Part shown: piece by piece, positions 13,618 to 61,686 of the stretch
How the letters are laid out: the number at the start of each line of letters is the position of its first letter
Numbering within the stretch: the first letter of the stretch is position 1
Assembly: GCF_964213995.1 (NCBI RefSeq)
Contig: NC_135829.1
Coordinates: 17,608,001-17,672,000, forward strand
Length of the DNA stretch: 64,000 nucleotides
Direction: 5' to 3'
DNA from: Mustelus asterias
Lineage: Eukaryota
Notes under the pieces: model-generated
Seen by the model: only the letters and a program-made list of their open reading frames with translations
Told to the model about the DNA's origin: nothing
The model's database searches: none
Position numbers and translations under genes: made by a program

Positions 13618-13732
13618 ATAGTGAATGTATTTAGTCACGCAGATCCCCCTGCTCTCTGGGGAAGAGAATTCCTAGTGATTAACGACTCCCTGAGAGAAGA
13701 TATTTCTCCTCCATCTCCATCTTAATCTCCTC

Positions 13733-16594
13733 CTGGAGGTCTGGAGTGCTTATACTTCAATGCAAGGAGCGTAGCAGGTAAGACAGACGAACATAGGGCC
13801 TTAATGCTCACGAGGAATTTGGATGTGGTTGCGGTGACAGAGACTTGGTTGAAAGAGGGACAAGACTGGCAGCTGAATATTCCAGGGTACAAGTGTTTTA
13901 GGCGAGACCGAGGAGGGGCCAAAAGAGGTGGGGGAGTAGCTGTATTAGTTGGAGAGCATATTACAGCGGTGCAGAGGGAGGACAATTCAGAGGGGTCGTG
14001 TAACGAGTCACTGGGTGGAGCTTAGAAACAGGAAGGGCGCAGTCACTATGTTGGGGGTGTACTACAGGCCCCCCAACAGCCCAAGGGAAGTGGAAGAACG
14101 GATATGTCAGGAGATACTGGATAGGTGCAGGAAAAATAGGGTTGTTGTGGTGGGAGACTTCAATTTCCCTGGTATAGACTGGAAATCGCTGAGAGCTGGG
14201 ACTCTGAATGGGGAGGAATTTGTAAAATGCGTACAGGAGGGTTCTTTGGAACAATATATAGATAGCCCGACTAGAGAGGGGGCTATACTGGACCTAGTAC
14301 TGGGGAATGAGCCCGGTCAGGTCTTCAAAGTTTCGGTAGGGGAACATGTGGCAAATAGTGACCACAATTCTGTTAGCTTTAGGATAGTGATGGAGAAGGA
14401 TGAGTGGTGTCCCAAGGGTAAGGTGTTGGATTGGGGGAAGGCTAACTTTAATGGGATTAGACAGAAATTGGCAGCTCTTGATTGGGAGAGGCTGTTTGAG
14501 GGTAAATCCACATCTGGCATGTGGGAGTCTTTTAAGGAACAGTTGTTAGGGCTGCAGGACAGGCATGTGCCTGTCAAAAAGAAGGATAGGAAGGGTAGGA
14601 TTCGAGAACCGTGGATAACCAGGGAAATTGAGGGACTGGTCAAAAAGAAAAGAGAGGCGTATGTTAGGTCCAGGCAGCTAAAAACGGAGGGAGCTCTGGA
14701 GGAGTACAAAGAAAGTAGGAAAGAACTCAAACGGGGAATTAGAAGGGCAAAAAAGGGTCACAAAATGTTCTTGGCAGACAGGATTAAGGAGAATCCCAAG
14801 GCATTTTATTCATACGTTAGGAACAAAAGGGTTGTCAGGGAAAAAATCGGACGGACCTCTCAGGGACAAAAGTGGGGAATTATGCTTGGAGCCCAAAGAA
14901 GTAGGGGAAATCCTAAATGAATACTTTGCGTCGGTATTCACAAAGGAGAGGGATGTGTTGACTGGGAGTGTCTCGGAGGGGAGTGTTGAACCGTTGGAGA
15001 AAATCTCCATTACAAGGGAGGAAGTGTTAGGTTTGTTAGAGAATATAAAGACTGACAAATCCCCAGGGCCTGATGGAATCTATCCAAGGCTGCTCAGGGA
15101 GACGAGAGATGAAATCGCTGGGCCTCTGACGCAAATCTTTGTCTCGTCACTGGACGCAGGTGAGGTCCCAGAGGATTGGAGGATAGCTAATGTGATCCCG
15201 TTATTTAAGAAGGGTAGGAAGGATAACCCGGGTAATTATAGGCCGGTGAGCTTGACGTCCGTGGTGGGGAAGTTGTTGGAGAAGATTCTTAGAGATAGGA
15301 TGTATGCGCATTTAGAAAGGAATAAACTCATTAACGATAGTCAGCATGGTTTTGTGAGAGGGAGGTCATGCCTCACTAACCTGGTGGAGTTTTTTGAAGA
15401 AGTGACCAGAATGGTTGACGAGGGAAGGGCCGTGGATGTCGTCTATATGGACTTTAGTAAAGCGTTTGACAATGTCCCTCATGGTAGGCTGGTGAAAAAG
15501 GTTGGATCTCTTGGGATAAAGGGGGAGGTGGCTAGATGGGTGGAGAACTGGCTTGGTCACAGAAGACAGAGGGTGGTAGTGGAAGGGTCTTTTTCCGGCT
15601 GGAGGCATGTGACTAGTGGTGTTCCGCAGGGCTCTGTATTGGGACCTCTGCTGTTTGTGATTTATATAAACGATCTGGAAGAAGGTGTAACTGGGGTGAT
15701 CAGTAAGTTTGCAGACGACACAAAATTGGCAGGACTTGCAGATAGTGAGGAGCATTGTCAGAAGCTACAGAAGGATATAGATAGGCTGGAAATTTGGGCA
15801 AAGAAATGGCAGATGGAGTTCAATCCTGATAAATGCGAAGTGATGCATTTTGGTAGAAATAATGTAGGGAGGAGCTATGCGATAAATGGCAGAACCATAA
15901 AGGGTGTAGATATGCAGAGGGACCTGGGTGTGCAAGTCCACAGATCCTTGAAGGTGACGTCACAGGTGGTGAAGAAGGCATATGGCATGCTTGCCTTTAT
16001 AGACGGGGCATAGAGTATAAAAGTTGGGGTCTGATGTTGCAGATGTATAGAACGTTGGTTCGGCCGCATCTGGAATACTGCGTCCAGTTCTGGTCGCCAC
16101 ACTACCAGAAGGACGTGGAGGCTTTGGAGAGAGTACAGAGGAGGTTTATCAGGATGTTGCCTGGTATGGAGGGGCTTAGTTATGAGGAGAGATTGGGTAA
16201 ACTGGGGTTGTTCTCCCTGGAAAGACGGAGGATGAGGGGAGACTTAATAGAGGTGTATAAAATTATGAAAGGCATAGATAGGGTGAACGGTGGGAAGCTT
16301 TTCCCCAGGTCGGTGGTGACGTTCACGAGGGGTCATAGGTTCAAGGTGAAGGGGGGGAGGTTTAACACAGATATCAGAAAGACATATTTTACACAGAGGG
16401 TGGTGGGGGCCTGGAATGCGCTGCCAGGCAAGGTGGTGGAGGTGGACACACTGGGAATGTTTAAGACTTATCTAGACAGCCATATGAACGGAGTGGGAAT
16501 GGAGGGATACAAAAGAATGGTCTAGTTTGGACCAGGGAGCGGCACGGGCTTGGAGGGCCGAAGGGCCTGTTCCTGTGCTGTACTGTTCTTTGTT
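13733..16594 (+). mobile_element. CR1 LINE, near-complete ORF2 (APE endonuclease + RT), frameshifted
   Basis: APE motifs VAVTETWL, GDFNF, SDHN; RT motifs [23 protein letters not shown]; ORF broken into four pieces; 3' tail tgttctttgtt; 21-bp flanking duplication. Confidence 0.95.
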
Positions 16595-17272
16595 CATCTC
16601 CATTTTAATCTCCTCATCTCCATCTTAAATACCTGGTGGGTAGTTTTGCTCAGTGTAGCTGGCTGGTCACAACCTGCAGAGGTGACAAGTCATTCAGGAC
16701 TCCAGCATCTAATGACCAACCACTCTCCCTCCTATGAGTGTCTTCCGAGGACAGGGCCAAGCTCTGCATTGTACCTGCTGCCCATAGTTGGATAAACTGC
16801 ACGTTGCAAATTACACAGAGAATGGCAATTTGAATGAGGGGTATTATTCATTAACTGCCTTGATGTAAATTTGTTTGCCTTGAAGAATGATTGGGGGACA
16901 ATTTCTCTCTCCACCTGTGCAGAAATTCCAGATGATGCCAGCCAATATGAAACCTGAGGTTTTATTTTAATACTAATGTTATTGCCGCCTGTATTTTGCT
17001 TTGTATCCCCACAATAGTAATCCTTTCCAAGTTGCATTCTAACAGTCCAGATTGACATCCAGCTGTTTGAGGCCGCAGTTGGAAGGATAGGAATGCTGCT
17101 TTGTTGCTGTCCCACAGTGTAGCTGCTGTAAAATTTTATTGGTCCACCAAGTAATTGGCACAATTTGAAGATGTTTTATCGTCTGTTTTACCCTGTTCTT
17201 ATCGGCAGGGCCTTGCCCAGCTCGTTGAGTAATCTTTGAAATTCAAATAACCGCTAGAATTGAAATGTTTGA

Positions 17273-17440
<168 letters not shown>

Positions 17441-29506: not shown

Positions 29507-29538
29507 TTAATTCTTGAACTTCACATTTGCCTCTGTCA
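29507..29538 (-). CDS. Ig receptor copy 1, cytoplasmic micro-exon VTEANVKFKN* (exon 29504-29538)
   Basis: ttttctgtattcttag| acceptor and |gtaagt donor 3 nt after TAA; phase-1 entry matches the TM exon. Confidence 0.75.
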
Positions 29539-31290: not shown

Positions 31291-31407
31291 CTCTGGCAGA
31301 TTGTTGTCCTCTTCTGATTATGCAGATTACTCCATTAGAGCAAATTAATGCAGCCACATACAAAACCAGGATACCTACACGCATGGAACTGCAACTGGTG
31401 TCAGGAC
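31291..31407 (-). CDS. Ig receptor copy 1, transmembrane exon
   Basis: ttctcctcggtag| ... |gtaagc; 117 nt, phase 1-1; PDTSCSSMRVGILVLYVAALICSNGVICIIRRGQQSAR (hydrophobic helix followed by RR). Confidence 0.85.
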
Positions 31408-33168: not shown

Positions 33169-33252
33169 TGTTAGTCACTGGAGATATTCCAGATGTTGAG
33201 GTGAGGGCGTCTGGGGATTCACTACTTGAGATTGGACTCCTTGTTAACAGGT
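33169..33252 (-). CDS. Ig receptor copy 1, second Ser/Thr/Pro stalk exon
   Basis: ttatgtttctcag| ... |gtgagt; 84 nt, phase 1-1; DLLTRSPISSSESPDALTSTSGISPVTN. Confidence 0.75.
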
Positions 33253-33398: not shown

Positions 33399-33878
33399 CT
33401 TCATTATTTGTAGGAGTCTCACTGCTGGTCACTGGAGATATTCCAGATGTTGAGGTGTGAGTGTCTGGAGAGTCTGCACTTTTTGTCACACTGAGGGAGA
33501 TGTTTGCTCTAATCTTCCAGACAGGTTTCCCTGAGACCACACCGTGTACAACACAGAGATAGCTCCCAGTGTCCAACTCCTTCACTGAGTGAATAGTGAG
33601 GTTGTGAGTCTGGATTTTATTTGTAGGACTGTTTGAGCTTTGGTTGGAGATTCTTTGTGATGACTCTTTATCCACACAGCAGCGTGTGTTAGAATGTAAG
33701 CTATAACCCTCAATATGAACAGAGTGCAGACACTTGTTAACATTTCCAGATATGATCCAAAACAGAGTGAAGGGCAGAGATTTTCCATTCTCAAACTGGC
33801 AGGGTAAAGTCACATTCTCTCCCTCTGCTACAGTCAGTGACGAGAAAGTTTCAACAGCAGAAAATACTTCATCCGAAT
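33399..33878 (-). CDS. Ig receptor copy 1, IgV domain (D2) plus stalk exon
   Basis: attgtttctag| ... |gtcagt; 480 nt, phase 1-1; V-set hallmarks GENVTLPC, LFW, NLTI, DTGSYLC; extra Cys at 50, 67, 68. Confidence 0.92.
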
Positions 33879-35276: not shown

Positions 35277-35675
35277 CGTCCGGGTTTATCACAAAGAACA
35301 AGTTGTGGTTTTCACATCCCTCCCCTGTCAGGGTTTTCCAGTTTGGACATTTTGATGATTCTGTGGAATCCTGAACCGTGCAGGTAAATATCATCGAATC
35401 ATCACATAGCATCACAGCGAATGTCAGTGAATTCATTTCACCTCCATTTCTTTTGCATGTTTGACACTGCAGCTTCTCTTTCTGTTTCTCATGATCGATA
35501 TTTTCACAATCCTGCATTTTCTTCGCTCCTGTCTCACATTGTATTTTCTCAATTTCTGCTCCAGCACTGAAATCCCGAATGCTGCACAAGGTTCCGACAT
35601 TCCCAGCACCAGTGGGTGTGTTGCATTGCAGAGTGGTGACATCTCCTGATCCTCGAAAATGGACATAGGTGGATC
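35277..35675 (-). CDS. Ig receptor copy 1, Cys-rich atypical Ig domain (D1) exon
   Basis: ccttatccctgcag| ... |gtgagt; 399 nt, phase 1-1, open frame; GDVTTLQC ... SLTF ... DDSMIFTC; 10 Cys. Confidence 0.85.
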
Positions 35676-36592: not shown

Positions 36593-36759
36593 TCCTCAGA
36601 TACTGAAGCAGTCCTTTCCCACATGAAGTAAGACCGACAGAACGTTCAGGCTTGGGCTGATAAGTGACACACGATATTCACATCACACAAGTGTCTGGAA
36701 AATGACTAACTCCAAAAAAAAGAGAGAATTCTTTCCTTCCAAAAGGTGTTTGATACAGA

Positions 36760-38215
36760 GCCACAAAACTGCTTTGTGAGCAGCTCCAGGAATAAGAGGG
36801 ACTTCAGCAACATGGAGACGGAATTGGCTGAGCGACAGAGAACAGCGAGCAGTGATTAATGGATGTTTTTCTTGCTGGAGGGAGGTTTGTGGTGGAGTTG
36901 TCCAGGGGTCAGTGTTGGAACCGTTGCTTTTCCCGATATCTATTGCTGACCTATAACTGGGTGGACAGGGCACTATTACAAAGTTTGCAGATGATCCAAA
37001 ATCTGGAAACTTTGTGAACTGTGAGGAGGAGTATCAAACTTCAAAAACACGTAGACAAGTTGGTGCCGTGGGCAGACGGGTGGATGATGCAGTTCAATGC
37101 GGAGAAGTGTGAGGTGATTCAATTTGGTAGCAAGAACATGGAGAGACAATGTAAAATAAAGGTTACAACAGTAAAATGGATGCAGGAGCAGAGGGAGCTG
37201 GGAGTATATGTACATATATCATTGAAGGTGGCAAGGCAGTTGGAGAGCAGTTAATAAAGTATACAGCAACCTGGGCTTTATTAATAATGGCATAGAGTCC
37301 AAGAGCAAGGAGGTGATGTGGAATTTCTATAAGACGCTAGTTTGGCCTCAGTTGGAGTATTGCTTCCAGTTCTGGGTGCTGCACTTTCATAGAATCATAG
37401 AAACCCTACAGTGCAGAAAGAGGCCATTCGGCCCATCGAGTCTGCACCGACCACAATCCCACCCAGGCCCTCTCCCCAGATATTTACCCACTAATCCCTC
37501 TAACCTACACATCCCGGGACACTAAGGGGAAATTTAGCATGGCCAATTAACCTAACCCGCACATCTTTGGACTGTGGGAGGAAACCGGAGCAACCGGAGG
37601 AAACCCACGTAGACATGAGGAGAATGTGCAAACTCCACCACAGACAATGACCCAAGCCGGGAATCGAACCCAGGTCCCTGGAGCTGTGAAGCAGCAGTGC
37701 TAACCACTGTGCTACCATGCCGCCACTTTAGGAAGGATGCGATGGCATTGGAGAGAATGCAGAATATTCATAAGAATGATTCCAGGGATGATGAAGATAG
37801 ATTGAAGAAGTTGGCATTGTTTTCCTTGGAGAAGAGAAGGCTGAGAGGAGATTTGATCGAGATGTTCAAAATCATGAGGGGTTTGCACAGTGTAGATAGG
37901 GAGAAACTGTTCCCACTCATGGAAAGATCGAGAATGAGGGGACACATTTAGAGTAATTAGTAAAAGAAGCAAACTGATACGAGGAGAAGCTTTTCATGCA
38001 GTGAGTAGTTAAGGTCTGGAATGCACTGTCTGAGAGTGTGGAGGGGGCAGTTTTATTGAAGCATTTGGAAAGGAATTAGACTGTTAACTGTAATGGAAGA
38101 TAGTGCAAGGTTACGGCGAGAAGGCAGAGGAATGGTATTAGGTGAGATACTCATTCAGAGAACCGGTGTGGACAGAATGGGCCGAATGGCCTCCTGCACC
38201 GTTACAATTCTGTGA
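36760..38215 (+). mobile_element. Degraded CR1 RT/3' fragment with V-SINE inserted at 37388-37723 (copies in each array unit)
   Basis: MQFNAEKCEVIQFG, RRLRGDLIEMFKIM remnants; SINE flanked by TSD cacttt. Confidence 0.85.
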
Positions 38216-38907
38216 TCTCCCCTTGATATTCAATAGCAGCAACATTGTCAAATCATCGCCAACATTCTCAAGGTTACCATTGACCATCTCCATGACACTG
38301 TGGCTACAAGAGCAGGTCACAGACTGGGAATTCTGTGATGTATCGTTCACTTCCTGAATTCCCAAAATCTTTTCAACTTCTACAAGACACAGGTCAGTTG
38401 TATTTTAACACAGAGACAAGAATATTGCCGTAGGGTCGGAGTGAAGGAGATGTACCAAGCATAATGGAGAGTGATGAAAATCTGGATTCAAAGGGATTTG
38501 ATCTGCCTGTAACACTGAACAACCCACTCCGATATGTAATGTATTTTAATTGTGGTTCTCTGCCAGAACTAACTGACCCACTCGCTCTCCTGTATCTTTC
38601 GCATCTCAAATTCTTATCCAATTCTCAGTTGAAATACAGAATGATCTCTGTCTCAAGCACTGCCTGTCAAAGTATTCCATTGCCCCAACAACTCTCTGTG
38701 TAAAGAATTGCTCCGAATCTCTCCCCACTCTCTGAATGACAATATCAAACTGATGCTCCATGGTTACACCATATTAAACAGACACAGCAAAGACTGTGAG
38801 TCGACTGTGTTAAACATCTACACAAGAACAGCAATGCTTCGAATCTCTCTGTTTTTCTTTCCAGGTGAGGAACATTTGGAAGATTAATGGAAAGTATTCA
38901 TCCTTAC

Positions 38908-38962
38908 CAGCAACATGTTGGAAGAGAAGAAAAAGACCCACAAACAAAGCACCGAGTGCCAT
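38908..38962 (-). CDS. Ig receptor copy 1, signal-peptide exon (proximal leader L1)
   Basis: gaaATGg start; MALGALFVGLFLLFQHVA g|gtaagg; phase 1, joins the D1 exon in frame. Confidence 0.88.
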
Positions 38963-38999
38963 TTCAGATTCCTAGACCGTGCTTGCTGAGTGGTGGTTG

Positions 39000-39080
39000 C
39001 GTTCTTACTTCCCTATCTGTGAGAGAGAAGAGAAGCTGAACTTCTCGAAATGGCGTGAGAGATAATAGCTTCCTGTTTGA
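39000..39080 (-). promoter_or_regulatory. Putative TATA-less promoter region with ETS and GATA motifs (similar in all four leader modules)
   Basis: GGAAGT at 39012-39007, AGATAG at 39018-39013, AGATAA at 39060-39065, ACAGGAAG at 39076-39069, just upstream of the ATG. Confidence 0.45.
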
Positions 39081-39315
39081 CCAACTTAGGTGAAATGTGG
39101 GCTCTGATGTTGTGTTAATGCAACCGGGGCAGCAGTTGAGATGTTCGTTTGACCCTCCAACCAGAGACGTCACAGAAAGCTCCGAAATACAAAGAGCGGA
39201 ATTTAATGAAAAGAATTCAAAGTTCTGAACGAGTGAGAAAACAGGAGAGAAGCAAACGGGATTTGGGACGAGCTGTGAGTCACAATCTTATTGCTGTTCG
39301 TGCAAAATAAGAGCC

Positions 39316-40080
39316 AGGATGCGATTCTCGCCAATAGTGGGTGGAGCGGAGCCTAATCTCACCGGTGAAGCCGGCTACTGAGCTCATGAGGCACCATCCC
39401 GCAGGTGCTCCGATCTTCCTATCTACGCTCTCCCCATCAGTTGCTCCCTGTGTTGGTCTCCCCTGCCCCATCACCACATATATCAGCACCCCCCCGCCCC
39501 TCAATCCCCCGCTTTGCTGAGTTTCCTCCAGCCCCCCAATTGCCCATTCTGAAGTGTTTGTCCCCTCCCATTGCCCCCATTGCAGAGTTCCTCCCACTCT
39601 CCAATCCCCCCTTTGTGGACATTCCTCCACTAACCCCTTCAATCGTCACGGCTGCAGAGTTGCTCACTGCCCTCCACTGTGGAGCTCCCTCCCATTGCCT
39701 CCCCCCTCCCCTTTCCCCACCTCACTCATGCCCAAACCCCCTTAGGACCTGCCCCTTTAGCACTGCCCCTGGCATTCCCAGGATGCCTGGTTGGGCACTG
39801 CCAGGCTGGCACTGCCCAGGGGGCGTGGCCCGGCCCAGTCCCCGACAACCCGCTGATGGAGACCAGCTGTGATTCTCGCTGGTGGGGACCCCGACTGGTG
39901 AGTAGGTCAGGGCAAGTGAACCTGGACCATAGGGTCCCGGACTCACTCATGACAGTTCAATGATGTCTTTGATATTTCTGGGCGCAAAGCTAATGTCGTC
40001 GGCAAAACCGTGCCGGTGGATCAGGAGAGGCGAGAAACCAGGCATAAAACCAGTCTGGGGAGCCGGGAAGATTGCACCCA
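39316..40080. mobile_element. GC-rich MITE-like repeat upstream of leader (copies in each unit)
   Basis: Imperfect terminal inverted repeats ggatgcgattctc / gaagattgcaccc; C-rich non-coding interior. Confidence 0.4.
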
Positions 40081-43000
40081 AAGTGTACATTCTGCGTGTG
40101 CTTCTGTGCATCATGATGAGAGTGCGTAACACCGGAGCAGAGATATCAACACACCCCGCGCCCAAAGCATGATGGAGATACTAACCATCTGGAAACACAA
40201 GGACCAGGATTTTCCAGTCTCGCCATGCTTGGCGCAGAGCGATCTCCAGGAGCCCCAATGGAATTAAGTTCCGAGCTGGCAGTGGGAACCCTGCTGCTGA
40301 GCTCCCGGCTCCAGGGGAAACATTAATTTGCCAGATGTTACCCAGTCGGTTGGCAATTCCGCTCCTGAGAACCAATCAGAGGCTGGCAGCTCCCCATTGT
40401 TGGCAGCACCACCGGGCGCCGTCTCTGCAGCTGGTAATCCAACCGAGCCTTCACCAGGGGGTCATCGTGGGGGGCCCTGGAGAAGGACAAGTGCTGGATG
40501 GGATGGGGGCTGTGGGGAGTGGTTTGGTAGTAAGGGAGGGGTAATGGGTGGGAGGAAAGAGTGGGGGATGGTGACTCTCAGCAGGCCCCCTCTCCCATTC
40601 CCGATGCCAGATCCCTTGATCTTGTGCTGAGTGACAATAAGCACCTCCCACTCCACACTTGGCCACAAGCAAACCTGACAGGGATAGTTTGTCAACCTCC
40701 CCAGATGGCGAGTCCCCCACCCGCTATGGGTTGAATACCAGTGACAGTCGGATGAAGCCGTGAGTTGCTCAGTCAAAGGCGTCAATCGGTATCCGGTGGG
40801 AAGGTTGCCCAGAGCCTTCCTGTTCCAGATTAAACTGGGTGGAGGCAGGGAAGCAGCAGGGGCCATATCCCACACCCTTAGAGCCGAACAATTGCACCCT
40901 CCCCTTCCTCTCCCTCTCCCCATCACCATCCACACCCTGAGAACTTGCCTTGGAGGTGAAGCATTCCGTTCTGTCCCACTGCATCTAAACAGTGGAAGTG
41001 CATGATACTCCATCACTGTCTTTAACCACTATCTCAGCAAAGAAACAGGAAACATTGGAACTTCAGCCACTGTGGGCCATTCAGTCCCTGTATTTAGTTT
41101 GAGTTCATTGCATTTTTGCCTCAGTTTTCTCCTCTTGAGTCTCTCACTCTTCCTGTGTGAGCGTGGGTTAGAAATGGCTGCACGTTGTGTGATGTTGGGA
41201 CCATCACAACCCCACACCCTGATCATGTTCAATGTGCATGGGCAAAGCAGAACCAGTAAGCCATTCAGACCCTTGAGCCTGTTCGTCCTTTCAATCAGAG
41301 CATGATAAATCTTCGCCATAACTCCATGTATCTCCCTGTGCCCCAAATTCCTTGGAACCCTTGACTGACCAAATGTTATCAGTCTGTGCCTTGCAGGCTC
41401 GAGTTATCCCCCCGTGTCCACAGCATTTTGGGACAAAACAGTTTCAGATTTCCACTATCCCGAGTGGTAAAAAAATGCTTCTTGATTTCAAATTGAGATG
41501 ATGAATCTCTAATTTTAAGATTACCTTCCCCTGTTTTTCATCTGTATCGACTCTGTCAAATAATTTGAACACTGGAATGGATAAAGGATTGGTAAACTAA
41601 CAGGGAATACATACTGAAGCAGTCCTTGCCCACATGAAGTAAGACCTACACAACGTTCAGGCTCGGGCTGATAAGTGACACGCGACATTCACATCACACA
41701 AGTGTCTGGAAATGATTAACTCCAAAAGTAGAGAGAATCGTTTCCTTCCAAAAGGTGTTTGATACAGAGCCGCAAAACTGCTTTGTGAGCAGCCCCAGGA
41801 ATAAGAGGGACTTCAGCAACATGGAGACGGAATTGGCTGAGCGACAGAGAACAGCGAGCAGTGATTAATGGATGTTTTCCTTGCTGGAGGGAGGTTTGTG
41901 GTGGAGTTGTCCAGGGGTCAGTGTTGGAACCGTTGCTTTTCCCGATATCTATTGCTGACCTATAACTGGGTGGACAGGGCACAATTACAAAGATTGCAGA
42001 TGATCCAAAATCTGGAAGCTTTGTGAACTGTGAGGAGGAGAGTATCGAACTTCAAAAATACGTAGACAAGTTGGTGCCGTGGGCAGACGGGTGGATGATG
42101 CAGTTCAATGCGGAGAAGTGTGAGGTGATTCAATTTGGTAGCAAGAACATGGAGAGACAATGTAAAATAAAGGTTACAACAGTAAAATGGATGCAGGAGC
42201 AGAGGGAGCTGGGAGTATATGTACATATATCATTGAAGGTGGCAAGGCAGTTGGAGAGCAGTTAATAAAGTATACAGCAACCTGGGCTTTATTAATAATG
42301 GCATAGAGTCCAAGAGCAAGGAGGTGATGTGGAATTTCTATAAGACGCTAGTTTGGCCTCAGTTGGAGTATTGCTTCCAGTTCTGGGTGCTGCACTTTCA
42401 TAGAATCATAGAAACCCTACAGTGCAGAAAGAGGCCATTCGGCCCATCGAGTCTGCACCGACCACAATCCCACCCAGGCCCTCTCCCCAGATATTTACCC
42501 ACTAATCCCTCTAACCTACACATCCCGGGACACTAAGGGGAAATTTAGCATGGCCAATTAACCTAACCCGCACATCTTTGGACTGTGGGAGGAAACCGGA
42601 GCAACCGGAGGAAACCCACGTAGACATGAGGAGAATGTGCAAACTCCACCACAGACAATGACCCAAGCCGGGAATCGAACCCAGGTCCCTGGAGCTGTGA
42701 AGCAGCAGTGCTAACCACTGTGCTACCATGCCGCCACTTTAGGAAGGATGCGATGGCATTGGAGAGAATGCAGAATATTCATAAGAATGATTCCAGGGAT
42801 GATGAAGATAGATTGAAGAAGTTGGCATTGTTTTCCTTGGAGAAGAGAAGGCTGAGAGGAGATTTGATCGAGATGTTCAAAATCATGAGGGGTTTGCACA
42901 GTGTAGATAGGGAGAAACTGTTCCCACTCATGGAAAGATCGAGAATGAGGGGACACATTTAGAGTAATTAGTAAAAGAAGCAAACTGATACGAGGAGAAG

Positions 43001-43921
43001 CTTTTCATGCAGTGAGTAGTTAAGGTCTGGAATGCACTGTCTGAGAGTGTGGAGGGGGCAGTTTTATTGAAGCATTTGGAAAGGAATTAGACTGTTAACT
43101 GTAATGGAAGATAGTGCAAGGTTACGGCGAGAAGGCAGAGGAATGGTATTAGGTGAGATACTCATTCAGAGAACCGGTGTGGACAGAATGGGCCGAATGG
43201 CCTCCTGCACCGTTACAATTCTGTGATCTCCCCTTGATATTCAATAGCAGCAACATTGTCAAATCATCGCCAACATTCTCAAGGTTACCATTGACCATCT
43301 CCATGACACTGTGGCTACAAGAGCAGGTCACAGACTGGGAATTCTGTGATGTATCGTTCACTTCCTGAATTCCCAAAATCTTTTCAACTTCTACAAGACA
43401 CAGGTCAGGAGTTGTATTTTAACACAGAGACAAGAATATTGCCGTAGGGTCGGAGTGAAGGAGATGTACCAAGCATAATGGAGAGTGATGAAAATCTGGA
43501 TTCAAAGGGATTTGATCTGCCTGTAACACTGAACAACCCACTCCGATATGTAATGTATTTTAATTGTGGTTCTCTGCCAGAACTAACTGACCCACTCGCT
43601 CTCCTGTATCTTTCGCATCTCAAATTCTTATCCAATTCTCAGTTGAAATACAGAATGATCTCTGTCTCAAGCACTGCCTGTCAAAGTATTCCATTGCCCC
43701 AACAACTCTCTGTGTAAAGAATTGCTCCGAATCTCTCCCCACTCTCTGAATGACAATATCAAACTGATGCTCCATGGTTACACCATATTAAACAGACACA
43801 GCAAAGACTGTGAGTCGACTGTGTTAAACATCTACACAAGAACAGCAATGCTTCGAATCTCTCTGTTTTTCTTTCCAGGTGAGGAACATTTGGAAGATTA
43901 ATGGAAAGTATTCATCCTTAC

Positions 43922-43976
43922 CAGCAACATGTTGGAAGAGAAGAAAAAGACCCACAAACAAAGCACCGAGTGCCAT
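43922..43976 (-). CDS. Orphan leader exon L2 (unit lacks gene body)
   Basis: Identical MALGALFVGLFLLFQHVA exon with intact GTAAGG donor. Confidence 0.7.
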
Positions 43977-46900
43977 TTCAGATTCCTAGACCGTGCTTGC
44001 TGAGTGGTGGTTGCGTTCTTACTTCCCTATCTGTGAGAGAGAAGAGAAGCTGAACTTCTCGAAATGGCGTGAGAGATAATAGCTTCCTGTTTGACCAACT
44101 TAGGTGAAATGTGGGCTCTGATGTTGTGTTAATGCAACCGGGGCAGCAGTTGAGATGTTCGTTTGACCCTCCAACCAGAGACGTCACAGAAAGCTCCGAA
44201 ATACAAAGAGCGGAATTTAATGAAAAGAATTCAAAGTTCTGAACGAGTGAGAAAACAGGAGAGAAGCAAACGGGATTTGGGACGAGCTGTGAGTCACAAT
44301 CTTATTGCTGTTCGTGCAAAATAAGAGCCAGGATGCGATTCTCGCCAATAGTGGGTGGAGCGGAGCCTAATCTCACCGGTGAAGCCGGCTACTGAGCTCA
44401 TGAGGCACCATCCCGCAGGTGCTCCGATCTTCCTATCTACGCTCTCCCCATCAGTTGCTCCCTGTGTTGGTCTCCCCTGCCCCATCACCACATATATCAG
44501 CACCCCCCGCCCCTCAATCCCCCGCTTTGCTGAGTTTCCTCCAGCCCCCCAATTGCCCATTCTGAAGTGTTTGTCCCCTCCCATTGCCCCCATTGCAGAG
44601 TTCCTCCCACTCTCCAATCCCCCCTTTGTGGACATTCCTCCACTAACCCCTTCAATCGTCACGGCTGCAGAGTTGCTCACTGCCCTCCACTGTGGAGCTC
44701 CCTCCCATTGCCTCCCCCCTCCCCTTTCCCCACCTCACTCATGCCCAAACCCCCTTAGGACCTGCCCCTTTAGCACTGCCCCTGGCATTCCCAGGATGCC
44801 TGGTTGGGCACTGCCAGGCTGGCACTGCCCAGGGGGCGTGGCCCGGCCCAGTCCCCGACAACCCGCTGATGGAGACCAGCTGTGATTCTCGCTGGTGGGG
44901 ACCCCGACTGGTGAGTAGGTCAGGGCAAGTGAACCTGGACCATAGGGTCCCGGACTCACTCATGACAGTTCAATGATGTCTTTGATATTTCTGGGCGCAA
45001 AGCTAATGTCGTCGGCAAAACCGTGCCGGTGGATCAGGAGAGGCGAGAAACCAGGCATAAAACCAGTCTGGGGAGCCGGGAAGATTGCACCCAAAGTGTA
45101 CATTCTGCGTGTGCTTCTGTGCATCATGATGAGAGTGCGTAACACCGGAGCAGAGATATCAACACACCCCGCGCCCAAAGCATGATGGAGATACTAACCA
45201 TCTGGAAACACAAGGACCAGGATTTTCCAGTCTCGCCATGCTTGGCGCAGAGCGATCTCCAGGAGCCCCAATGGAATTAAGTTCCGAGCTGGCAGTGGGA
45301 ACCCTGCTGCTGAGCTCCCGGCTCCAGGGGAAACATTAATTTGCCAGATGTTACCCAGTCGGTTGGCAATTCCGCTCCTGAGAACCAATCAGAGGCTGGC
45401 AGCTCCCCATTGTTGGCAGCACCACCGGGCGCCGTCTCTGCAGCTGGTAATCCAACCGAGCCTTCACCAGGGGGTCATCGTGGGGGGCCCTGGAGAAGGA
45501 CAAGTGCTGGATGGGATGGGGGCTGTGGGGAGTGGTTTGGTAGTAAGGGAGGGGTAATGGGTGGGAGGAAAGAGTGGGGGATGGTGACTCTCAGCAGGCC
45601 CCCTCTCCCATTCCCGATGCCAGATCCCTTGATCTTGTGCTGAGTGACAATAAGCACCTCCCACTCCACACTTGGCCACAAGCAAACCTGACAGGGATAG
45701 TTTGTCAACCTCCCCAGATGGCGAGTCCCCCACCCGCTATGGGTTGAATACCAGTGACAGTCGGATGAAGCCGTGAGTTGCTCAGTCAAAGGCGTCAATC
45801 GGTATCCGGTGGGAAGGTTGCCCAGAGCCTTCCTGTTCCAGATTAAACTGGGTGGAGGCAGGGAAGCAGCAGGGGCCATATCCCACACCCTTAGAGCCGA
45901 ACAATTGCACCCTCCCCTTCCTCTCCCTCTCCCCATCACCATCCACACCCTGAGAACTTGCCTTGGAGGTGAAGCATTCCGTTCTGTCCCACTGCATCTA
46001 AACAGTGGAAGTGCATGATACTCCATCACTGTCTTTAACCACTATCTCAGCAAAGAAACAGGAAACATTGGAACTTCAGCCACTGTGGGCCATTCAGTCC
46101 CTGTATTTAGTTTGAGTTCATTGCATTTTTGCCTCAGTTTTCTCCTCTTGAGTCTCTCACTCTTCCTGTGTGAGCGTGGGTTAGAAATGGCTGCACGTTG
46201 TGTGATGTTGGGACCATCACAACCCCACACCCTGATCATGTTCAATGTGCATGGGCAAAGCAGAACCAGTAAGCCATTCAGACCCTTGAGCCTGTTCGTC
46301 CTTTCAATCAGAGCATGATAAATCTTCGCCATAACTCCATGTATCTCCCTGTGCCCCAAATTCCTTGGAACCCTTGACTGACCAAATGTTATCAGTCTGT
46401 GCCTTGAAGGCTCGAGTTATCCCCCCGTGTCCACAGCATTTTGGGACAAAACAGTTTCAGATTTCCACTATCCCGAGTGGTAAAAAAATGCTTCTTGATT
46501 TCAAATTGAGATGATGAATCTCTAATTTTAAGATTACCTTCCCCTGTTTTTCATCTGTATCGACTCTGTCAAATAATTTGAACACTGGAATGGATAAAGG
46601 ATTGGTAAACTAACAGGGAATACATACTGAAGCAGTCCTTGCCCACATGAAGTAAGACCTACACAACGTTCAGGCTCGGGCTGATAAGTGACACGCGACA
46701 TTCACATCACACAAGTGTCTGGAAATGATGAACTCCAAAAGTAGAGAGAATCGTTTCCTTCCAAAAGGTGTTTGATACAGAGCCGCAAAACTGCTTTGTG
46801 AGCAGCTCCAGGAATAAGAGGGACTTCAGCAACATGGAGACGGAATTGGCTGAGCGACAGAGAACAGCGAGCAGTGATTAATGGATGTTTTCCTTGCTGG

Positions 46901-48592
46901 AGGGAGGTTTGTGGTGGAGTTGTCCAGGGGTCAGTGTTGGAACCGTTGCTTTTCCCGATATCTATTGCTGACCTATAACTGGGTGGACAGGGCACAATTA
47001 CAAAGATTGCAGATGATCCAAAATCTGGAAGCTTTGTGAACTGTGAGGAGGAGAGTATCGAACTTCAAAAATACGTAGACAAGTTGGTGCCGTGGGCAGA
47101 CGGGTGGATGATGCAATTCAATGCGGAGAAGTGTGAGGTGATTCAATTTGGTAGCAAGAACATGGAGAGACAATATAAAATAAAGGTTACAACAGTAAAA
47201 TGGATGCAGGAGCAGAGGGAGCTGGGTGTGTATGTACATATATCATTGAAGGTGGCAAGGCAGTTGGAGAGCAGTTAATAAAGTACACAGCAACCTGGGC
47301 TTTATTAATAATGGCATAGAGTCCAAGAGCAAGGAGGTGATGTGAAATTTCTATAAGACGCCAGTTTGGCCTCAGTTGGAGTATTGCTTCCAGTTCTGGG
47401 TGCCGCACTGTAGGAAGGCTGCGATGGCATTGGAGAGAATGCAGAATATTCACAAGAATGATTCCAGGGATGATGAAGATAGATTGGAGAAGTTGGGATT
47501 GTTTTCCTTGGAGAAGAAAAGGCTGAGAGGAGATTTGATCGAGGTGTTCAAAATCATGAGGGGTTTGCACAGTGTAGATAGGGAGAAACTGTTCCCACTC
47601 ATGGAAAGATCGAGAATGAGGGTATAAATTTAGAGTAATTAGTAAAAGAAGCAAACTGATATGAGGAGAAGCTTTTTCATGCAGTGAGTAGTTAAGGTCT
47701 GGAATGCACTGTCTGAGAGTGTGGAGGGGGCAGGTTTATTCAAGCATTTGAAAAGGAATTAGACTGTTAACAGTCAAGGAAGATAGTGCAAGGTTACGGG
47801 GAGAAGGCAGAGGAATGGTATTAGGTGAGATGCTCATTCAGAGAACCGGTGTGGACAGAATGGGCCGAATGGCCTCCTGCACCGTTACAATTCTGTGATC
47901 TCCCCTTGATATTCAATAGCAGCAACATTGTCAAATCATCGCCAACATTCTCGAGGTTACCATTGGCCATCTCCGTGACACTGTGGCTACAAGAGCAGGT
48001 CACAGACTGGGAATACTGCGAGTTGTAGCTCACTTCCTGAATTCCCAAAACCTTTCCAACTTCTTCAAGACACAGGTCAGGAGTTGTATTTTAACACAGA
48101 GACATGAATATTGCTGTAGAGTTGGAGTTATGGAGATGCACAAAGTGTGGCCAAGAGTGATGGAAATCTGGATTCAAAAGGATTTGATCTGCCTGTAACA
48201 CTGAACCACCCACTTCTATATGTAATGTATTTTAATTGTGGTTCTCTGCCAGAAGTAACTGACCCACTCGCTCTCCTGTATCTTTCGCATCTCAAATTCT
48301 TATCCAATTCTCAGTTGAAATATAGAATGATCTCTGACTCAAGCACTGCCTGTCAAAGTATTCCATTCCCCCAACAACTCTCTGTGTAAAGAATTGCTCC
48401 TAATCTCTCCTCACTCTCTGAATGACAATATCAAACCGATGCTCCATGGTTACACCATATTAAACAGACACAGCAAAGACTGTGAGTTGACTGTGTTAAA
48501 CATCTACACAAGAAAGCAATGCTTCAAATCTCTCTGTTTTTCTTTCCAGGTGAGGAACATTTGGAAGATTAATGGAAAGTATTCATCCTTAC

Positions 48593-48647
48593 CTGCAACA
48601 TGTTGGAAGAGAAGAAAAAGACCCACAAACAAAGCACCGAGTGCCAT
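48593..48647 (-). CDS. Orphan leader exon L3 (unit lacks gene body)
   Basis: Same peptide, gca g|gtaagg donor; surrounding unit more diverged than L1/L2. Confidence 0.7.
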
Positions 48648-49692
48648 TTCAGATTCCTAGACCGTGCTTGCTGGGTAGTGGTTGCGTTCTTACTTCCCTA
48701 TCTGTGAGAAAGAAGAGAAGCTGAACTTCTCGAAATGGCGTGAGAGATAATAGCTTCCTGTTTGACCAACTTAGGTGAAATGTGGGCTCTGACGTTGTGT
48801 TAATGCAACCAAGACAGCAGTTGAGATGCTTGTTTGATCCTCCAACCAGGGACGTCAGAAAAAGCTCCGAAATACAAAGAATGGAATTTCATGAAAAGAA
48901 TTCAAAGTTCCGAACGAGTGAGAAAATGGGAGAGGAGTGAGCGGGTTTTTGGGTTAAGCTGCGAGTCACAATCTTATTGCTCTTTGTGCAAAATAAGAGC
49001 CAGGATGCGATTCTCGCCAGTAGTGGGTGGAGTGGAGCCTAATCTCACTGGTGAAGCCGGTTACTGAGCTCATGGTGCGCCATTGCGCTGGTGCCCTGAT
49101 CTCCCGGCGTACACTCCCCCATCAGTTGCTCCCTGTGTTGGTCTCCCCACCACCCCCAATCACCACATATATTGGCACCCCCACCCCTCAATCCCCCGCT
49201 TTGCTGAGTTTCCTCCAGCCCCCCAATTGCCCACTCTGAAGTGTTTCTTCCCTCCCATTGCCCCTATTGCAAAAATCCTCCCACTCTCCAATCCCCCCTT
49301 TGAGGAGATCCCCACACAAACCCCTTCAATCGTCATGGCTGCAGAGTTGCTCACTCCCCCACTGTGGAGCTCCCTCACATTGCCTCCCCCCTCCCATGTC
49401 CCCACCTCACTCAGGACCAAACCCCCTCAGGACCTGCCCCTTTAGCACTTCCCCTGGCATTCCCATGGTGGCAGTTGGGCACTGCCAGGCTGGCACTGCC
49501 CAGGGGGTGTGGCCCGGCCCAGTCCCCGACAACCCACTGATGGAGACCAGCTGTGATTCTCACCGGTGGGGATCCGGACCGATGAGTAGGTCAGGGCAAG
49601 TGAACCTGGACCATAGGGTCCCGGACTCACTAATGACATTTAAATGATGTCTTTGATATTTCTGGGCACAAAGCTGATATCGTCGGCAAAAA

Positions 49693-50038
49693 GGGGCGGC
49701 ACAGTAGCACAGTGGTTAGCACTGCTGCTTCACAGCTCCAGGGACCTGGGTTCGATTCCCGGCTCGGGTCACTGTCTGTGTTGAGTTTGCACATTCTCCT
49801 CGTGTCTGCGTGGGTTTCCTCTGGGTGCTCCGGTTTCCTCCCACAGTCCAAAGATGTGCGGGTTAGGTTAATTGGCCATGCTGAATTTACCCTTAGTGTC
49901 CCGGGTTGCGTAGGTTAGAGGGATTAGCGGGTAAATATGTAGGGATATGGAGATAGGGCCTGGGTGGGATTGTGGTCGGTGCAGACTCGATGGGCCCGGT
50001 GGCCTCTTTCTGCACTGTAGGGTTTCTATGATTCTATG
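49693..50038 (+). mobile_element. V-SINE insertion specific to unit 3
   Basis: Absent at the equivalent site ggcaaaaccgtgcc in the units at ~40001, ~45014 and ~62725. Confidence 0.88.
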
Positions 50039-52347: not shown

Positions 52348-52379
52348 TTAATTCTTGAACTTCACATTTGCCTCTGTCA
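52348..52379 (-). CDS. Ig receptor copy 2, cytoplasmic micro-exon VTEANVKFKN* (exon 52345-52379)
   Basis: Identical to the copy 1 exon and splice sites. Confidence 0.75.
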
Positions 52380-53978
52380 CTAAGAATACAGAAAACAAAA
52401 CAGGTGAAATATTTAATAACATATACTTCAAACAATGTCAAACATCTGGAAGTGGGATTTGGCATTTTTAAGTCAAGATCTCCCAAAACTCGATTGATTC
52501 AGGAATTATCCCTCTGGATTGGAATGCTGCCATTGTTATTCCATAATTTCAGATGGGTAGGATAGAGAAAGCAGAAAATAATAGAGCTGTTAGTCTGATG
52601 TCTGTTGTGGGGAAGTTACTAGGATCTGCTACTGGAACTCAAGATCAAAAGATTTAGGAGCAAGAGTGTAGGCCATTCAGGCCCTTAAGCCTGCTCAGCC
52701 ATTGGCTGATCTAATTGTGGTCTCATCTCTACGATCCTCTCTGCTTCATACAACCTCGTCCACCAGGAATCCTCGAACTCAATGCAAACATGTAAGTTCC
52801 TTCTAACAAACCTAGTTTAATCTAATAAGTGGTTCCCTAATTTGGTTGATAAGGGAGTGCATTTGGATGTGACCCATGTAGATTTCTAGACAGAACTCAA
52901 TAAAGTTCCACACAAGAGGCTGTCATCAAAAATAAAGTGTATGGAATTGGAGGCAATGACGTGAATATGAAATTGGTTAGGAAGTATAGAAGGCAGACAA
53001 TAGGGACAATAGGTATATAGTCACATTGGCAGGATGTAAATATCAGTATCTCCCCGAACCCCAGCATTTCACTATATTTATAAATGACTTAGATAAAGCA
53101 ATAGCGACCTGGATATCTAAGCTTGCTGATGACACCAAGGCACATTAAGTAGTGTAGACTGCAGTCACAAGGGGACATTGATGGATTAAGTGTGTTAGCA
53201 AATTGGCAGCGACAGAGTTCAAAGTGGGGAAGTGTAAAGACATCATCCACATCGCACCCAAGACTGCTCAGAGTATTTCGAAATGGTGAGAAGCTTAGAA
53301 CTCTGGAGGAGCAGAGAGGGAATTAGGGTTCATTCATGTAAATCACTAAAGGTTCATTGACAGGTACATAGAATGATGAAAAAGGCTGATGGGATGTTCA
53401 CCCATCTCACAGAGGCTGGAGTACAAAGGGGTAGAAGTTATGCTCCAGTTCTGGGCACTGCACTTCAGGAAAGTTAATTTGATGAACAGAGATTCATCAG
53501 GATGCTAAAAGGAATAAATTATGGGGTTGGGTTTACATCAGGATTACATCAGGAAGGTCGATAGAAACTGCTACCTCTGCTGTGAGAGTCTAAAATCAGG
53601 AGAGCCATCCGTGAGGTTAGTGCAGGGCTGTACAGAAAGCACATCAAAGGGTAATGAAAATCTGGAACTCTCTCCCCAAAGGGTGTTAGTTTGGGGATCA
53701 ATTGAAAATGTCCTCGGTGAGACTGATAGGTTTTCTATGAGGTATATGAAGGGATGTGGAACCAAGGTGAGCGAATGGAGTAAAGATAGAGATAAAATTA
53801 AAATTAAATTTTAATTAAATGGCAGAACAAGCTCGATGGGCTGAAAGGTCTCCTCCTGTTCCCATGATCAAGACAAATGAGATGTGTTAGAATCATGACT
53901 TTAAAAATCATCATAATTAGTTGGTATTAAAATACAATTTTCCAGTTTGCAGAAACAGATTTTAAAACTCTTGCTTAC

Positions 53979-54095
53979 CTCTGGCAGATTGTTGTCCTCT
54001 TCTGATTATGCAGATTACTCCATTAGAGCAAATTAATGCAGCCACATACAAAACCAGGATACCTACACGCATGGAACTGCAACTGGTGTCAGGAC
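53979..54095 (-). CDS. Ig receptor copy 2, transmembrane exon
   Basis: Identical to 31291-31407. Confidence 0.85.
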
Positions 54096-54325
54096 CTACC
54101 GAGGAGAAGCAACATTAAATTCAGGCTGTGCAATCCAGTGTTCTACATACGGCTCATTGCACTGGCTACCAAACCTTCCCCTCAGAATCTAGAATAGTCA
54201 ATGGCGAAGGAAGGAAATTGAACCAATTTACAACGGGTACAAACTGTACAAACAGACCCAGAATCTCTCAGCTGGAGCTCCTGACATTGAATGATTCATG
54301 TTGCCGATTGTCTTACTTTTTAGAG

Positions 54326-55859
54326 TATCAAGAAGCAGAGGTAATTTTAAGTGTTTGTACCGTTGGATATTAGAAATGAGTTATAGATTTACATGAGTTT
54401 AGTGTTCCTGTATAAGGAAAGGTAAACCTCCAGTTAGATTCATATTAAACAATGTTTGCTTGTATGGGGGGATTTTTTAGAATCATAGAATCCTACAGTG
54501 CAGAAGGAGGCCATTCGGCCCAGTGAGTCTGCACCAAACACAATCCCACTTTATTCCCATAACCCCACATATTTACCCTGCTAATCCCCCTGACACGAGA
54601 GTCTATTTATCATGGCCAATCAACCGAACCCGCAAATCTTTGGATTGTGGGAGAAAACCGAAGCACTCGGAGGAAACCCACCCAGACACTGGGAGAATGT
54701 GCAAACCCCACACAGACAGGAATTGAACACAGGTCCTTAGTGCTGTGAGGCAGCAGTGCTAACCACTGTGATACCATTTCAGTTCAAACTGTGGTAGCAT
54801 TATGCTAAGAGTGTTTACAGCGTGTAAAATAGATAAGAGCTTAGAGAAAGAATTAGATGTTGTTTAGCAACCAAGGTTCACTTATAGGGGAAGAGACCTC
54901 ACTGTGTTCTTAGTTTAACTGAGCCAGAGTAGAAGGAGCTTCACAGTGAGAGAGGGAACATCTCTCACTGCTTTGCCAGAAAAAAAGCCATATAAAAATA
55001 GAGTAACGGGCAAACAAGCAAGTGTCAGAAATCTAAAAACAGCCAGTTAAGGAGGATGAAGAGAAGTCTCCAGGAAGTCTGAAGTTAAAGGAACAGAGGA
55101 AACTGGAACGAGGTTACAGACAGAGTTGAGAAGCTGAAGAGTTTGCTAGTGAAAAACAGAGATATCTGAAATTATTTCAAGATATGTGAGATTTGCTACA
55201 GCCTGTGAAGTGATAGTTGAAGCAATTGTGAAGTAATTAGTGACTGGATCTTTTAGTGTTTGTGTGAAAGCTTGAAAGCATTCAAGACAAAGGAACATTG
55301 AACCGAGAGCTATAAAACTTCGAAGTGGATCCTTGTTGGGAAAGGGTGATTGAAATAATTGTTTGAAAGAAGATTCTAAAGTGTGTCTTTTTGAGAGTGG
55401 GGTTTGGAATCACTCATGTGGAAGTCAGAGTCCAGTAAGATCAGTTGGCTCATGGTGTGAGAATCATCTGGGGGGATTTGAGAAGAAGTCCACAGAAGTT
55501 CACTTGGGTGGCATCTGCCACTTGGTTTCAGAATGGAGTGTGTTTGACCACAGTTAGCCTGTGGTTTAAAGGGATTGTGTGTTTCGTGAGACCATTATAG
55601 CATAAGATATATCTTGTAACCTCTGTCATCCTTAAAATCCATGTATATTTGTGAAGATAAATGGGAGTGAAAGAGTATTGTATTATAGTCAAACTTTTCA
55701 TGTTCAATTAATGTTTTCTGTTGTTAAAAGCTAATTGTTAGTCCTGTGACTCTCTTCATTCCCATTTTCTAAAAGATATGTAAAAGTTACGGTCTTTTGA
55801 GCCAAGGTTCCATTTGGGATCTTCCGGTCCAAGTAGTAACATACACAGGGGCTGTAACA
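54326..55859 (+). mobile_element. Solo LTR-like element with 4-bp TSD (V-SINE inside, ~54478-54776)
   Basis: TSD agag at 54322-54325 and 55860-55863; ends ggggctgtaaca; starts tatcaag (possibly a decayed TG). Confidence 0.72.
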
Positions 55860-55869
55860 AGAGATACAC

Positions 55870-55953
55870 TGTTAGTCACTGGAGATATTCCAGATGTTGA
55901 GGTGAGGGTGTCTGGGGATTCACTACTTGAGACTGGACTCCTTGTTACCTGGT
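55870..55953 (-). CDS. Ig receptor copy 2, second stalk exon (donor weak; may be skipped or read through)
   Basis: Acceptor ttatgttcctcag|; DQVTRSPVSSSESPDTLTSTSGISPVTN; the in-phase donor position reads GTGTAT. Confidence 0.5.
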
Positions 55954-56099
55954 CTGAGGAACATAACTTCCCAGTTAGAATCTGGAATGATAAATGACGA
56001 ACGATGGAAATTGAACCAGTTTACAACAGGTACAAAATCCCTCAGCTGGAATTATTGATATTAAATGATTTAAATCATATCGTGCATTGTCTGACTTAC

Positions 56100-56579
56100 C
56101 TTCATTATTTGTAGGAGTTCCACTGCTGGTCACTGGAGATATTCCAGATGTTGAGGTGTGAGTGTCTGGAGAGTCTGCACTTTTTGTCACACTGAGGGAG
56201 ATGTTTGCTGTAATCTTCCAGACAGGTTTCCCTGAAGCCTGACCGTGTACAACACAGAGATAGCTCCCAGTGTCCAACTCCTTCACTGAGTGAATAGTGA
56301 GGTTGTGAGTCTGGATTTTATTTGTTGGATTGTCTGAGCTTTGGATAGAGATTCTTTGTGATGACTCTTTATCCACACAGCAGCGTGTGTTAGAATGTAA
56401 GCTATAATCCTCAATATGAACAGAGTGCAGACACTTGTTAACATTTCCAGATATGATCCAAAACAGAGTGAAGGGCAGAGATTTTCTATTCTCAAACTGG
56501 CAGGGTAAAGTCACATTCTCTCCCTCTGCTACAGTCAGTGACGAGAAAGTTTCAACTGTAGAAAATACTTCATCCGAAT
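56100..56579 (-). CDS. Ig receptor copy 2, IgV domain (D2) plus stalk exon
   Basis: 480 nt, canonical |gtaagt donor; 10 aa differences from copy 1. Confidence 0.92.
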
Positions 56580-57999: not shown

Positions 58000-58398
58000 C
58001 GTCCGGGTTTATCACAAAGAACAAGTTGTGGTTTTCACATCCCTCCCCTGTCAGGGTTTCCCAGTTTGGACATTTTGATGATTCTGTGGAATCCTGAACC
58101 GTGCAGGTAAATATCATTGAATCATCACATAGCATCACAGCGAATGTCAGTGAATTCATTTCACCTCCATTTCTTTTGCATTTTCGACACTGCAGCTTCT
58201 CTTTCTGTTTCTCATGATCGATATTTTCACAATCCTGCATTTTCTTCGCTCCTGTCTCACATTGTATTTTCTCAATTTCTGCTCCAGCACTGAAATCCCG
58301 AATGCTGCACAAGGTTCCGACATTCCCAGCACCAGTGGGTGTGTTGCATTGCAGAGTGGTGACATCTCCTGATCCTCGAAAATGGACATAGGTGGATC
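58000..58398 (-). CDS. Ig receptor copy 2, Cys-rich D1 exon
   Basis: 399 nt, open frame, same splice sites; all 10 Cys kept; 3 aa differences from copy 1. Confidence 0.85.
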
Positions 58399-61631: not shown

Positions 61632-61686
61632 CTGCAACATGTTGGAAGAGAAGAAAAAGACCCACAAACAAAGCACCGAGTGCCAT
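61632..61686 (-). CDS. Ig receptor copy 2, signal-peptide exon (L4)
   Basis: MALGALFVGLFLLFQHVA g|gtaagg. Confidence 0.88.

Follow-up and report, generated by a model that had tools for sequence, protein, structure and literature searches.

An unusual cysteine-rich tip in a likely paired-receptor family of sharks

Little is known of the innate and NK-type receptors that cartilaginous fish possess, and a cysteine-rich exon in the shark Mustelus asterias raises the question of what kind of domain it encodes and what kind of protein carries that domain. The window, the whole stretch of DNA that was analysed, is 64,000 nucleotides long (RefSeq assembly GCF_964213995.1, contig NC_135829.1, positions 17,608,001 to 17,672,000). 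The exon lies on its reverse strand at 35675-35277, spans 399 nt, has AG/GT borders and is in phase 1 at both ends. The evidence below indicates that the exon likely encodes the unusual tip of an unnamed family of shark paired receptors. The domain is called D1, and its residues are numbered with the exon-start Gly as 1; residue n of D1 is residue n+18 of the 388-aa protein LOC144480428 (P0001).

A preliminary description of this exon, made from the letters alone, had proposed a disulfide-rich Ig variant, and its reading of the primary sequence was accurate. The translation contains ten Cys (18, 31, 47, 57, 71, 74, 91, 99, 110, and 121), and the segments GDVTTLQC, SLTF, and DDSMIFTC are present, with 81 residues from C18 to C99. 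The region of the putative C strand is free of Trp, the sole Trp of D1 being W113, inside the C110-C121 loop. The next domain, D2, has an odd number of Cys as claimed: 5, including a CC pair (protein residues 178, 201, 218, 219, and 260). If the Cys frequency is assumed to be 2.2%, at least 10 Cys would occur in 132 aa with a probability of 7e-4, and at 3.7% with one of 0.025; conservation is a stronger argument than this figure that the Cys are real.

The exons of the gene that contains this D1 (copy 1), when joined, gave an open frame identical to P0001, the 388-aa RefSeq product of LOC144480428 of Mustelus asterias, annotated as "uncharacterized". The gene is intact, with a leader, D1, a V-set D2, a Ser/Thr stalk, a transmembrane segment, and a short tail. 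The features of copy 1 and of a second copy in the window are as follows.

38908..38962 (-): leader (signal peptide) exon nearest copy 1, found by tblastn with P0001; has a GT donor and is joined to D1 in contigs
35277..35675 (-): copy 1 D1 exon, encoding a Cys-rich, probably Ig-derived membrane-distal domain with 10 Cys; splice joints in contigs
33399..33878 (-): copy 1 D2 exon, a V-set Ig domain with 5 invariant Cys, 4 N-glycosylation sequons, and the start of the Ser/Thr stalk
33169..33252 (-): copy 1 second stalk exon, skipped in RefSeq isoforms X4 and X6
31291..31407 (-): copy 1 transmembrane exon of the short type, with a juxtamembrane Cys, Tyr, and Asn where other sharks have Asp/His
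29507..29538 (-): copy 1 last coding exon, a short tail without Tyr, followed by the stop
58000..58398 (-): copy 2 D1 exon, 3 residues unlike copy 1, with the same 10 Cys
52348..56579 (-): copy 2 D2 (56579-56100), stalk (55953-55870), short-type transmembrane exon (54095-53979), and tail (52379-52348)
61632..61686 (-): leader exon nearest copy 2
43922..48647 (-): two more leader-exon copies (43976-43922 and 48647-48593), in tandemly repeated units upstream of copy 1

Contigs from each of 4 sequencing runs covered the D1 exon and ended at its borders. Their loose ends read into the start of the D2 exon (4 of 4) and into the leader exon (3 of the 4 shown), in run X14 letter for letter. The runs carry no record of being RNA, yet across the joints the contigs lack two introns, one of 1.4 kb and one of at least 3.2 kb. 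Run X14 also contained a variant with six differences, and differences of these kinds are also what sets the third gene copy apart in this stretch. A pseudo-exon or a chance open reading frame was considered for the D1 exon and was ruled out by splicing and conservation.

Several leader exons have identical translations, and the nearest one is listed above as the candidate partner of each D1. The leader exon is repeated: copy 1 is preceded by three of them (window positions 36600-49700) and copy 2 by two, the second of which lies just past the end of the window (L004:2311-2367, contig C70). Those of copy 1 comprise two 5.0-kb units that are 99.3% alike and one more diverged copy, and all five translate to the same 19 residues. 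These repeats are either alternative first exons or debris of duplication.

The genome contains at least 3 matches to D1 and at least 3 to D2, all within 60 kb, and they make up three tandem genes, two short and one long. Copy 2 has an open frame of 388 aa with 17 residues unlike copy 1 and is also short-tailed. Copy 3, beyond the window, is LOC144480561, the long form, with a tail of about 180 residues. Copies 1 and 2 may represent a false duplication of the assembly; against this, they differ at those 17 residues and at 3% of bases over 10 kb.

In protein searches, related sequences came from 12 shark species, which belong to six orders (Mustelus, Scyliorhinus, Carcharodon, Cetorhinus, Rhincodon, Stegostoma, Hemiscyllium, two Chiloscyllium, Heterodontus, Pristiophorus, and Heptranchias), and from nowhere else in the searches run. 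All of these relatives are unnamed or bear an automatic low-complexity name. No ray, chimaera, or bony vertebrate matched in searches that were mostly word-based with length limits, the unindexed one having been started from a single D1. HMMER with D1 over 1.84 billion representatives returned 8 matches, 5 from sharks and 3 to long repeat proteins (20-29% identity, one named a bacterial cadherin-domain protein); the latter were set aside as likely compositional. The openly accessible main texts searched, whose supplements could list such genes, gave no name or description of the family, and six LOC identifiers of the family were absent from them. Among the database models, which include P0033 (Heptranchias), P0005/P0007/P0010/P0059 and P0009 (Pristiophorus), are a short form with the order D1-D2-D1-D2, isoforms that leave out D2 and keep D1 only, and isoforms lacking the membrane exon. 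The D1-only forms would leave the partner of any D1-D2 bond free.

Eight of the 12 species have both a short and a long form. A tree was built from 24 ectodomains, with the doubled P0033 left out; in it, short and long forms grouped by species in 7 of 7 pairs, and the tree needed 7 label changes, all forced by strongly supported branches. D2 identity was 93-99% within species against a mean of 67% between species. The membrane segments behaved in the opposite way: short forms were 56% identical to short forms of other species and long forms 46% to long forms, whereas short and long forms of the same species shared 27%. The membrane exons therefore keep their type across species while the ectodomains follow the species. 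These are linked paralogs with near-identical ectodomains and differing membrane and tail segments, a pattern that, as read from the sequences, likely reflects gene conversion acting on paired receptors. In mammals, PMC3210942 describes paired receptors whose ligand-binding ends are homogenised while the ends that signal in opposite ways are conserved. The preliminary description had treated D1 without this paired-receptor context.

We therefore favor, with a probability of roughly 0.6, the reading that the short and long forms would be opposing immune receptors and that D1 would be their likely remodelled V-type Ig tip. All 8 short forms have a polar residue in the membrane segment (Asp in 5, His in 2, and Asn in 1, Mustelus), where all 8 long forms have Val; the 8 short forms also share a juxtamembrane Cys, and short forms have a Tyr. 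The short-form membrane segments contain no Lys/Arg and no FxxDT/FxxNT, but C-x-D/H/N-G instead. Every one of the 10 long tails contains NPxY, HVYCxI/L, and YxxI/L motifs, whereas only 6 of them have a strict ITIM; the Mustelus long tail and those of 3 other species have none.

The same ends could be read differently. The long form could be a co-stimulatory or adhesion scaffold (NPxY, YxxI, YxxM-like), and the short form a non-signalling decoy or a disulfide-linked dimer partner that modulates it, with D1 probably the same Ig-derived domain. The invariant NPxY beside a strict ITIM in only some of the tails fits such a scaffold, and a decoy or dimer partner would be consistent with short forms that have a juxtamembrane Cys throughout, a polar membrane residue that varies, and neither a basic membrane residue nor FxxDT. 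However, homogenised ectodomains combined with retained type-specific membrane exons are the pattern described for opposing receptors in PMC3210942, and an acidic membrane residue drives activation by CD300C according to PMC12447643. We consider the scaffold and decoy roles rather unlikely.

D2 is an ordinary V-set domain, apart from three additional invariant Cys. Its Pfam E value for V-set is 5.1e-8, above the cut-off, its AlphaFold2 pLDDT is 51-88 by block, and Foldseek returned V-set matches with an E value of 3.5e-7 to CD96 and PD-1. The predicted D2 model folds like CD96 D1, PD-1, and CD8, with a TM-score to the target of up to about 0.75. Each of the five Cys occurs in 24 of 24 aligned rows, three of them in addition to a plain V-set.

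Whether D1 is also an Ig domain is less direct. We regard it as probably Ig-derived, likely a remodelled V-type domain, judging from its sequence and that of its orthologs. The B- and F-like Cys are spaced as in V-type domains, with C18 in 17 of 17 rows and C99 in 16 of 17, 81 residues apart (65-85 expected). A 133-codon exon with phase 1 at both ends is usual for V-type domains. The other hallmarks have been replaced: in the C strand 16 of 17 rows have Leu30-Cys31, Trp-Trp occurring in Heptranchias only, and the tyrosine-corner motif D-x-[GA]-x-Y-x-C appears as x-S-x-x-F-T-C, with Phe in 17 of 17 rows and Asp at -6 in only 5 of 17. CD160 is another V-like domain with Cys in place of the strand-C Trp. 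In relation to the IgSF V-set (PF07686) and the Ig clan (PF00047, PF13895, PF07679), then, D1 resembles them in the B- and F-like Cys 81 apart and differs in scoring below every cut-off, in Leu for Trp, and in Phe for the tyrosine corner.

The searches gave a consistent but faint signal. The window's own D1 matched 0 Pfam families. On the orthologous D1s, Ig-clan models were found below the cut-off (Ig_2 in 6 of 17, ig in 4 of 17, I-set in 3 of 17, best E 0.0038) and in 0 of 17 above it, and these matches mostly cover the D-F part of D1. The D1 of Heptranchias (sevengill), with Trp-Trp at 30-31, matches Ig_2 over residues 11-115, also below the cut-off; this Trp-Trp may be secondary in view of the sequences, because its closest relative here has Leu-Cys. 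Three D1 queries gave five weak PDB matches, of which 3 were to Ig domains (bovine Fab, titin, and LRIG1), with the alignment falling on the E-F strands, and two were non-Ig (kinesin and scytalidopepsin); one query gave a non-Ig match only. With Atlas language-model features, the D1 of Chiloscyllium (bamboo shark) matched V-set clusters at 0.88-0.90, and 9 of its 10 best named matches fell in one clan; its top three matches were unnamed clusters, Ig clusters scoring 0.90 or less. The window's own D1 gave no usable match in Atlas. An hhalign comparison of the D1 profile with the D2 profile found no similarity (probability 0.2%).

The AlphaFold check that had been proposed was run, and D1 stayed unfolded: alone, with a 20-row alignment, it gave no model (pLDDT 29.6), and within the two-domain protein of Cetorhinus, with 24 rows, D1 blocks had a pLDDT of 21-35 and again no D1 model was obtained. 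Because AlphaFold2 failed on D1, its fold stays inferred. The earlier proposal of an Ig-like D1 thus gained weak support from sub-cut-off Ig-clan, PDB, and language-model matches and none from structure prediction.

The failed prediction could also mean that D1 is not an Ig domain, or only half of one, but a small disulfide-rich domain with chance Ig-like motifs atop the true V-set D2. Consistent with this are the empty Pfam result for the window's D1, the confinement of the sub-cut-off Ig matches mostly to the D-F part, the rarity of the canonical Asp six residues before C99, and the absence of the F-strand Cys from some sawshark genes, C99 being Phe in 3 of 5 sawshark rows while C18 stays. 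However, weak matches from three kinds of search agree on Ig, the B-F spacing and the exon's length and phases are those of a V-type domain, and no other Cys-rich family matched more than 1 of the 17 D1 members. A non-Ig D1 is accordingly quite improbable.

W113 was present in 16 of 17 D1 rows, the row without it being the Heptranchias row that has the strand-C Trp-Trp. The second D1 of Heptranchias P0033 has both W113 and the strand-C Trp-Trp. W113 may stand in for the core Trp of D1.

Conservation of the Cys refined the claim of ten. C18, C110, and C121 occurred in 17 of 17 rows from 12 species, C31, C47, C71, and C99 in 16 of 17, C74 in 15 of 17, and C57 in 12 of 17 in the column, with 3 more rows one column to the left. 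C91 occurred in 3 of 17 rows, all Mustelus. The count of ten thus holds for Mustelus, but most sharks have nine, and nine Cys are the core of the D1 family as judged from the aligned sequences. C31 and C74 are lost jointly in Heptranchias, and C57 and C71 are lost jointly in Hemiscyllium; because of these joint losses, each of them a single event, the sequences suggest the pairs C31-C74 and C57-C71. C74 is lost singly in the long form of Mustelus, a lineage that has acquired C91, and C57 singly in Carcharodon, which has acquired C13. Since nine Cys in D1 and five in D2 leave one free in each, an inter-domain or inter-chain disulfide, also proposed earlier, is plausible from the sequence.

Mean identity across 11 species was 54% for residues 2-34, 33% for 35-82, 62% for 83-133, and 67% for D2. 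The variable part of D1 is therefore residues 35-82, 48 residues of which 18 are charged. An excess of replacements in D1 between short and long copies (10 against 1) was not significant (Fisher p 0.47), nor was pN/pS among the three Mustelus copies. The C110-C121 loop, which the preliminary description had likened to the CDR3 disulfides of IgNAR, lies in the most conserved segment of D1 (62% against 33% for residues 35-82) and is therefore not CDR3-like. That D1 is an IgNAR-like binder with this disulfide-closed FG loop as a variable paratope is highly improbable: the window's D1 has a single PDB match, to a bovine Fab heavy chain in which Cys of the long CDR3 line up with C110 and C121 (E 0.64), but one germline exon encodes the loop, its two Cys and most of its length are conserved in the least variable part of D1, and there are three copies per genome and no J-like FGxG motif.

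Taken together, the favored reading of opposing receptors would work as follows. C18-C99 would be the B-F bond, with Leu30 in place of the core Trp and Phe97 in place of the tyrosine corner. The extra bonds (C110-C121, C31-C74, and C57-C71) would brace D1 and pin the charged insert at 35-82, which would be the ligand-contact surface and could change without unfolding the domain. The ninth Cys, C47 by elimination, would bond with the odd Cys of D2 or with another chain. A shared ligand would bind both forms through D1. In the long form, ITIM-like and NPxY tyrosines would attract phosphatases or PTB adaptors, and the cell would be dampened. In the short form, the intramembrane Asp/His/Asn would provide the link to an ITAM adaptor of the FcR-gamma/zeta kind, and the cell would be activated, this form acting as a counterweight whenever the long one is engaged by a pathogen. 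The two ligand-binding ends would be kept alike by gene conversion.

A bolder form of this reading is that the receptors would be an undescribed, shark-wide paired family built on a new Ig subtype, in which extra disulfides would take the place of the core Trp, and in some genes of the B-F bond as well, and would display a fast-changing charged insert, and in which the activating member would couple through C-x-D/H/N-G, unlike the Lys/Arg or FxxDT modes. We offer this only tentatively. Paired IgSF receptors with extra Cys are already well known as a class, which limits the surprise. A single-locus pair conserved across six shark orders is nevertheless a candidate early vertebrate inhibitory/activating checkpoint, and residues 35-82 of D1 provide a defined variable surface for a ligand search. 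If the reading is true, D1 would show how far disulfides can remodel an Ig domain, and the short form may illustrate an additional mode of ITAM-adaptor docking.

On one flank of the receptor genes, a Pfam scan of ORFs identified exons of a proteasome alpha subunit, a phosphotransferase, a lipocalin, and a DnaJ gene.

11810-17437 (+) of the window, then segments L043, L039-L042, L030, and L024: flanking exons

We take these to be PSMA4, HYKK, CRABP1, and DNAJA4, which in human lie at 15q25. The nearest matches of the acetylcholine-receptor family on the contig are 12 Mb away, so a synteny break may fall at the receptor cluster. Beyond the long copy, no neighbor gene was recognised in about 350 kb by ORF ranking and Pfam on 146 ranked ORFs (L044-L063 were ranked only), and no MHC gene was found among those 146 flank ORFs scanned with Pfam. 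Two phosphotransferase (APH) exons, at L039:3987-4505 and L042:4078-4617 (+), suggest a tandem duplicate of the HYKK-like gene, and a mitochondrial-carrier exon (L038:6275-6910 (-), E 1.7e-31) lies between the lipocalin and phosphotransferase genes. An endogenous retrovirus at L014:1168-7885 (+), about 65 kb past the long-form gene, has gag-, pol-, and env-like frames (zf-CCHC, RVT_1, RNase H, integrase, TLV_coat).

Several known systems resemble this family in part. IgNAR V is set apart by its rearranged VDJ and hypervariable CDR3, whereas D1 is a single germline exon with a conserved FG loop. CD16A and CD64 use FxxDT/FxxNT to work with FcR-gamma or zeta, according to PMC13107469; these motifs are absent here, and C-x-D/H/N-G is found instead. 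The NITR and DICP of ray-finned fish, as described in bioRxiv 10.1101/2021.06.11.448072, are inhibitory/activating receptors with two Ig domains and family-specific extra Cys. NITR consist of a V domain and a six-Cys I domain with J-like ends, whereas the shark Cys-rich domain is distal, D2 is a V-set with five Cys, and neither D1 nor D2 has FGxG. DICP are MHC-linked in bowfin; the shark locus lies beside the proteasome alpha subunit, kinase, lipocalin, and DnaJ genes.

Skate MDIR, also multigene activating/inhibitory IgSF receptors of cartilaginous fish, have domains that resemble CD300/TREM/pIgR, the CD300 type having WCR in strand C and FTV in strand E, as described in PMC3031540; the shark D2 has LFWI and NLTI, and D1 has TLC and SLTF, and no MDIR-named protein was among the protein-search matches. 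The strand-C WC(R) and the second Cys pair C-C' of CD300 and MDIR were found in neither D1 nor D2, and no search gave a sequence match to CD300. There is a likeness in organisation to CD300A/CD300C, which PMC12447643 describes as a type I IgSF pair with a long Tyr-motif tail in one member and a short tail with an acidic membrane residue in the other, a Ser/Thr stalk, and gene-converted ectodomains. CD300 has one V domain with a C-strand Trp and a C-C' Cys pair, whereas the shark family has two domains and a nine-Cys D1. By analogy, the shark family likely works in the manner of the CD300A/C, NITR, DICP, and MDIR pairs.
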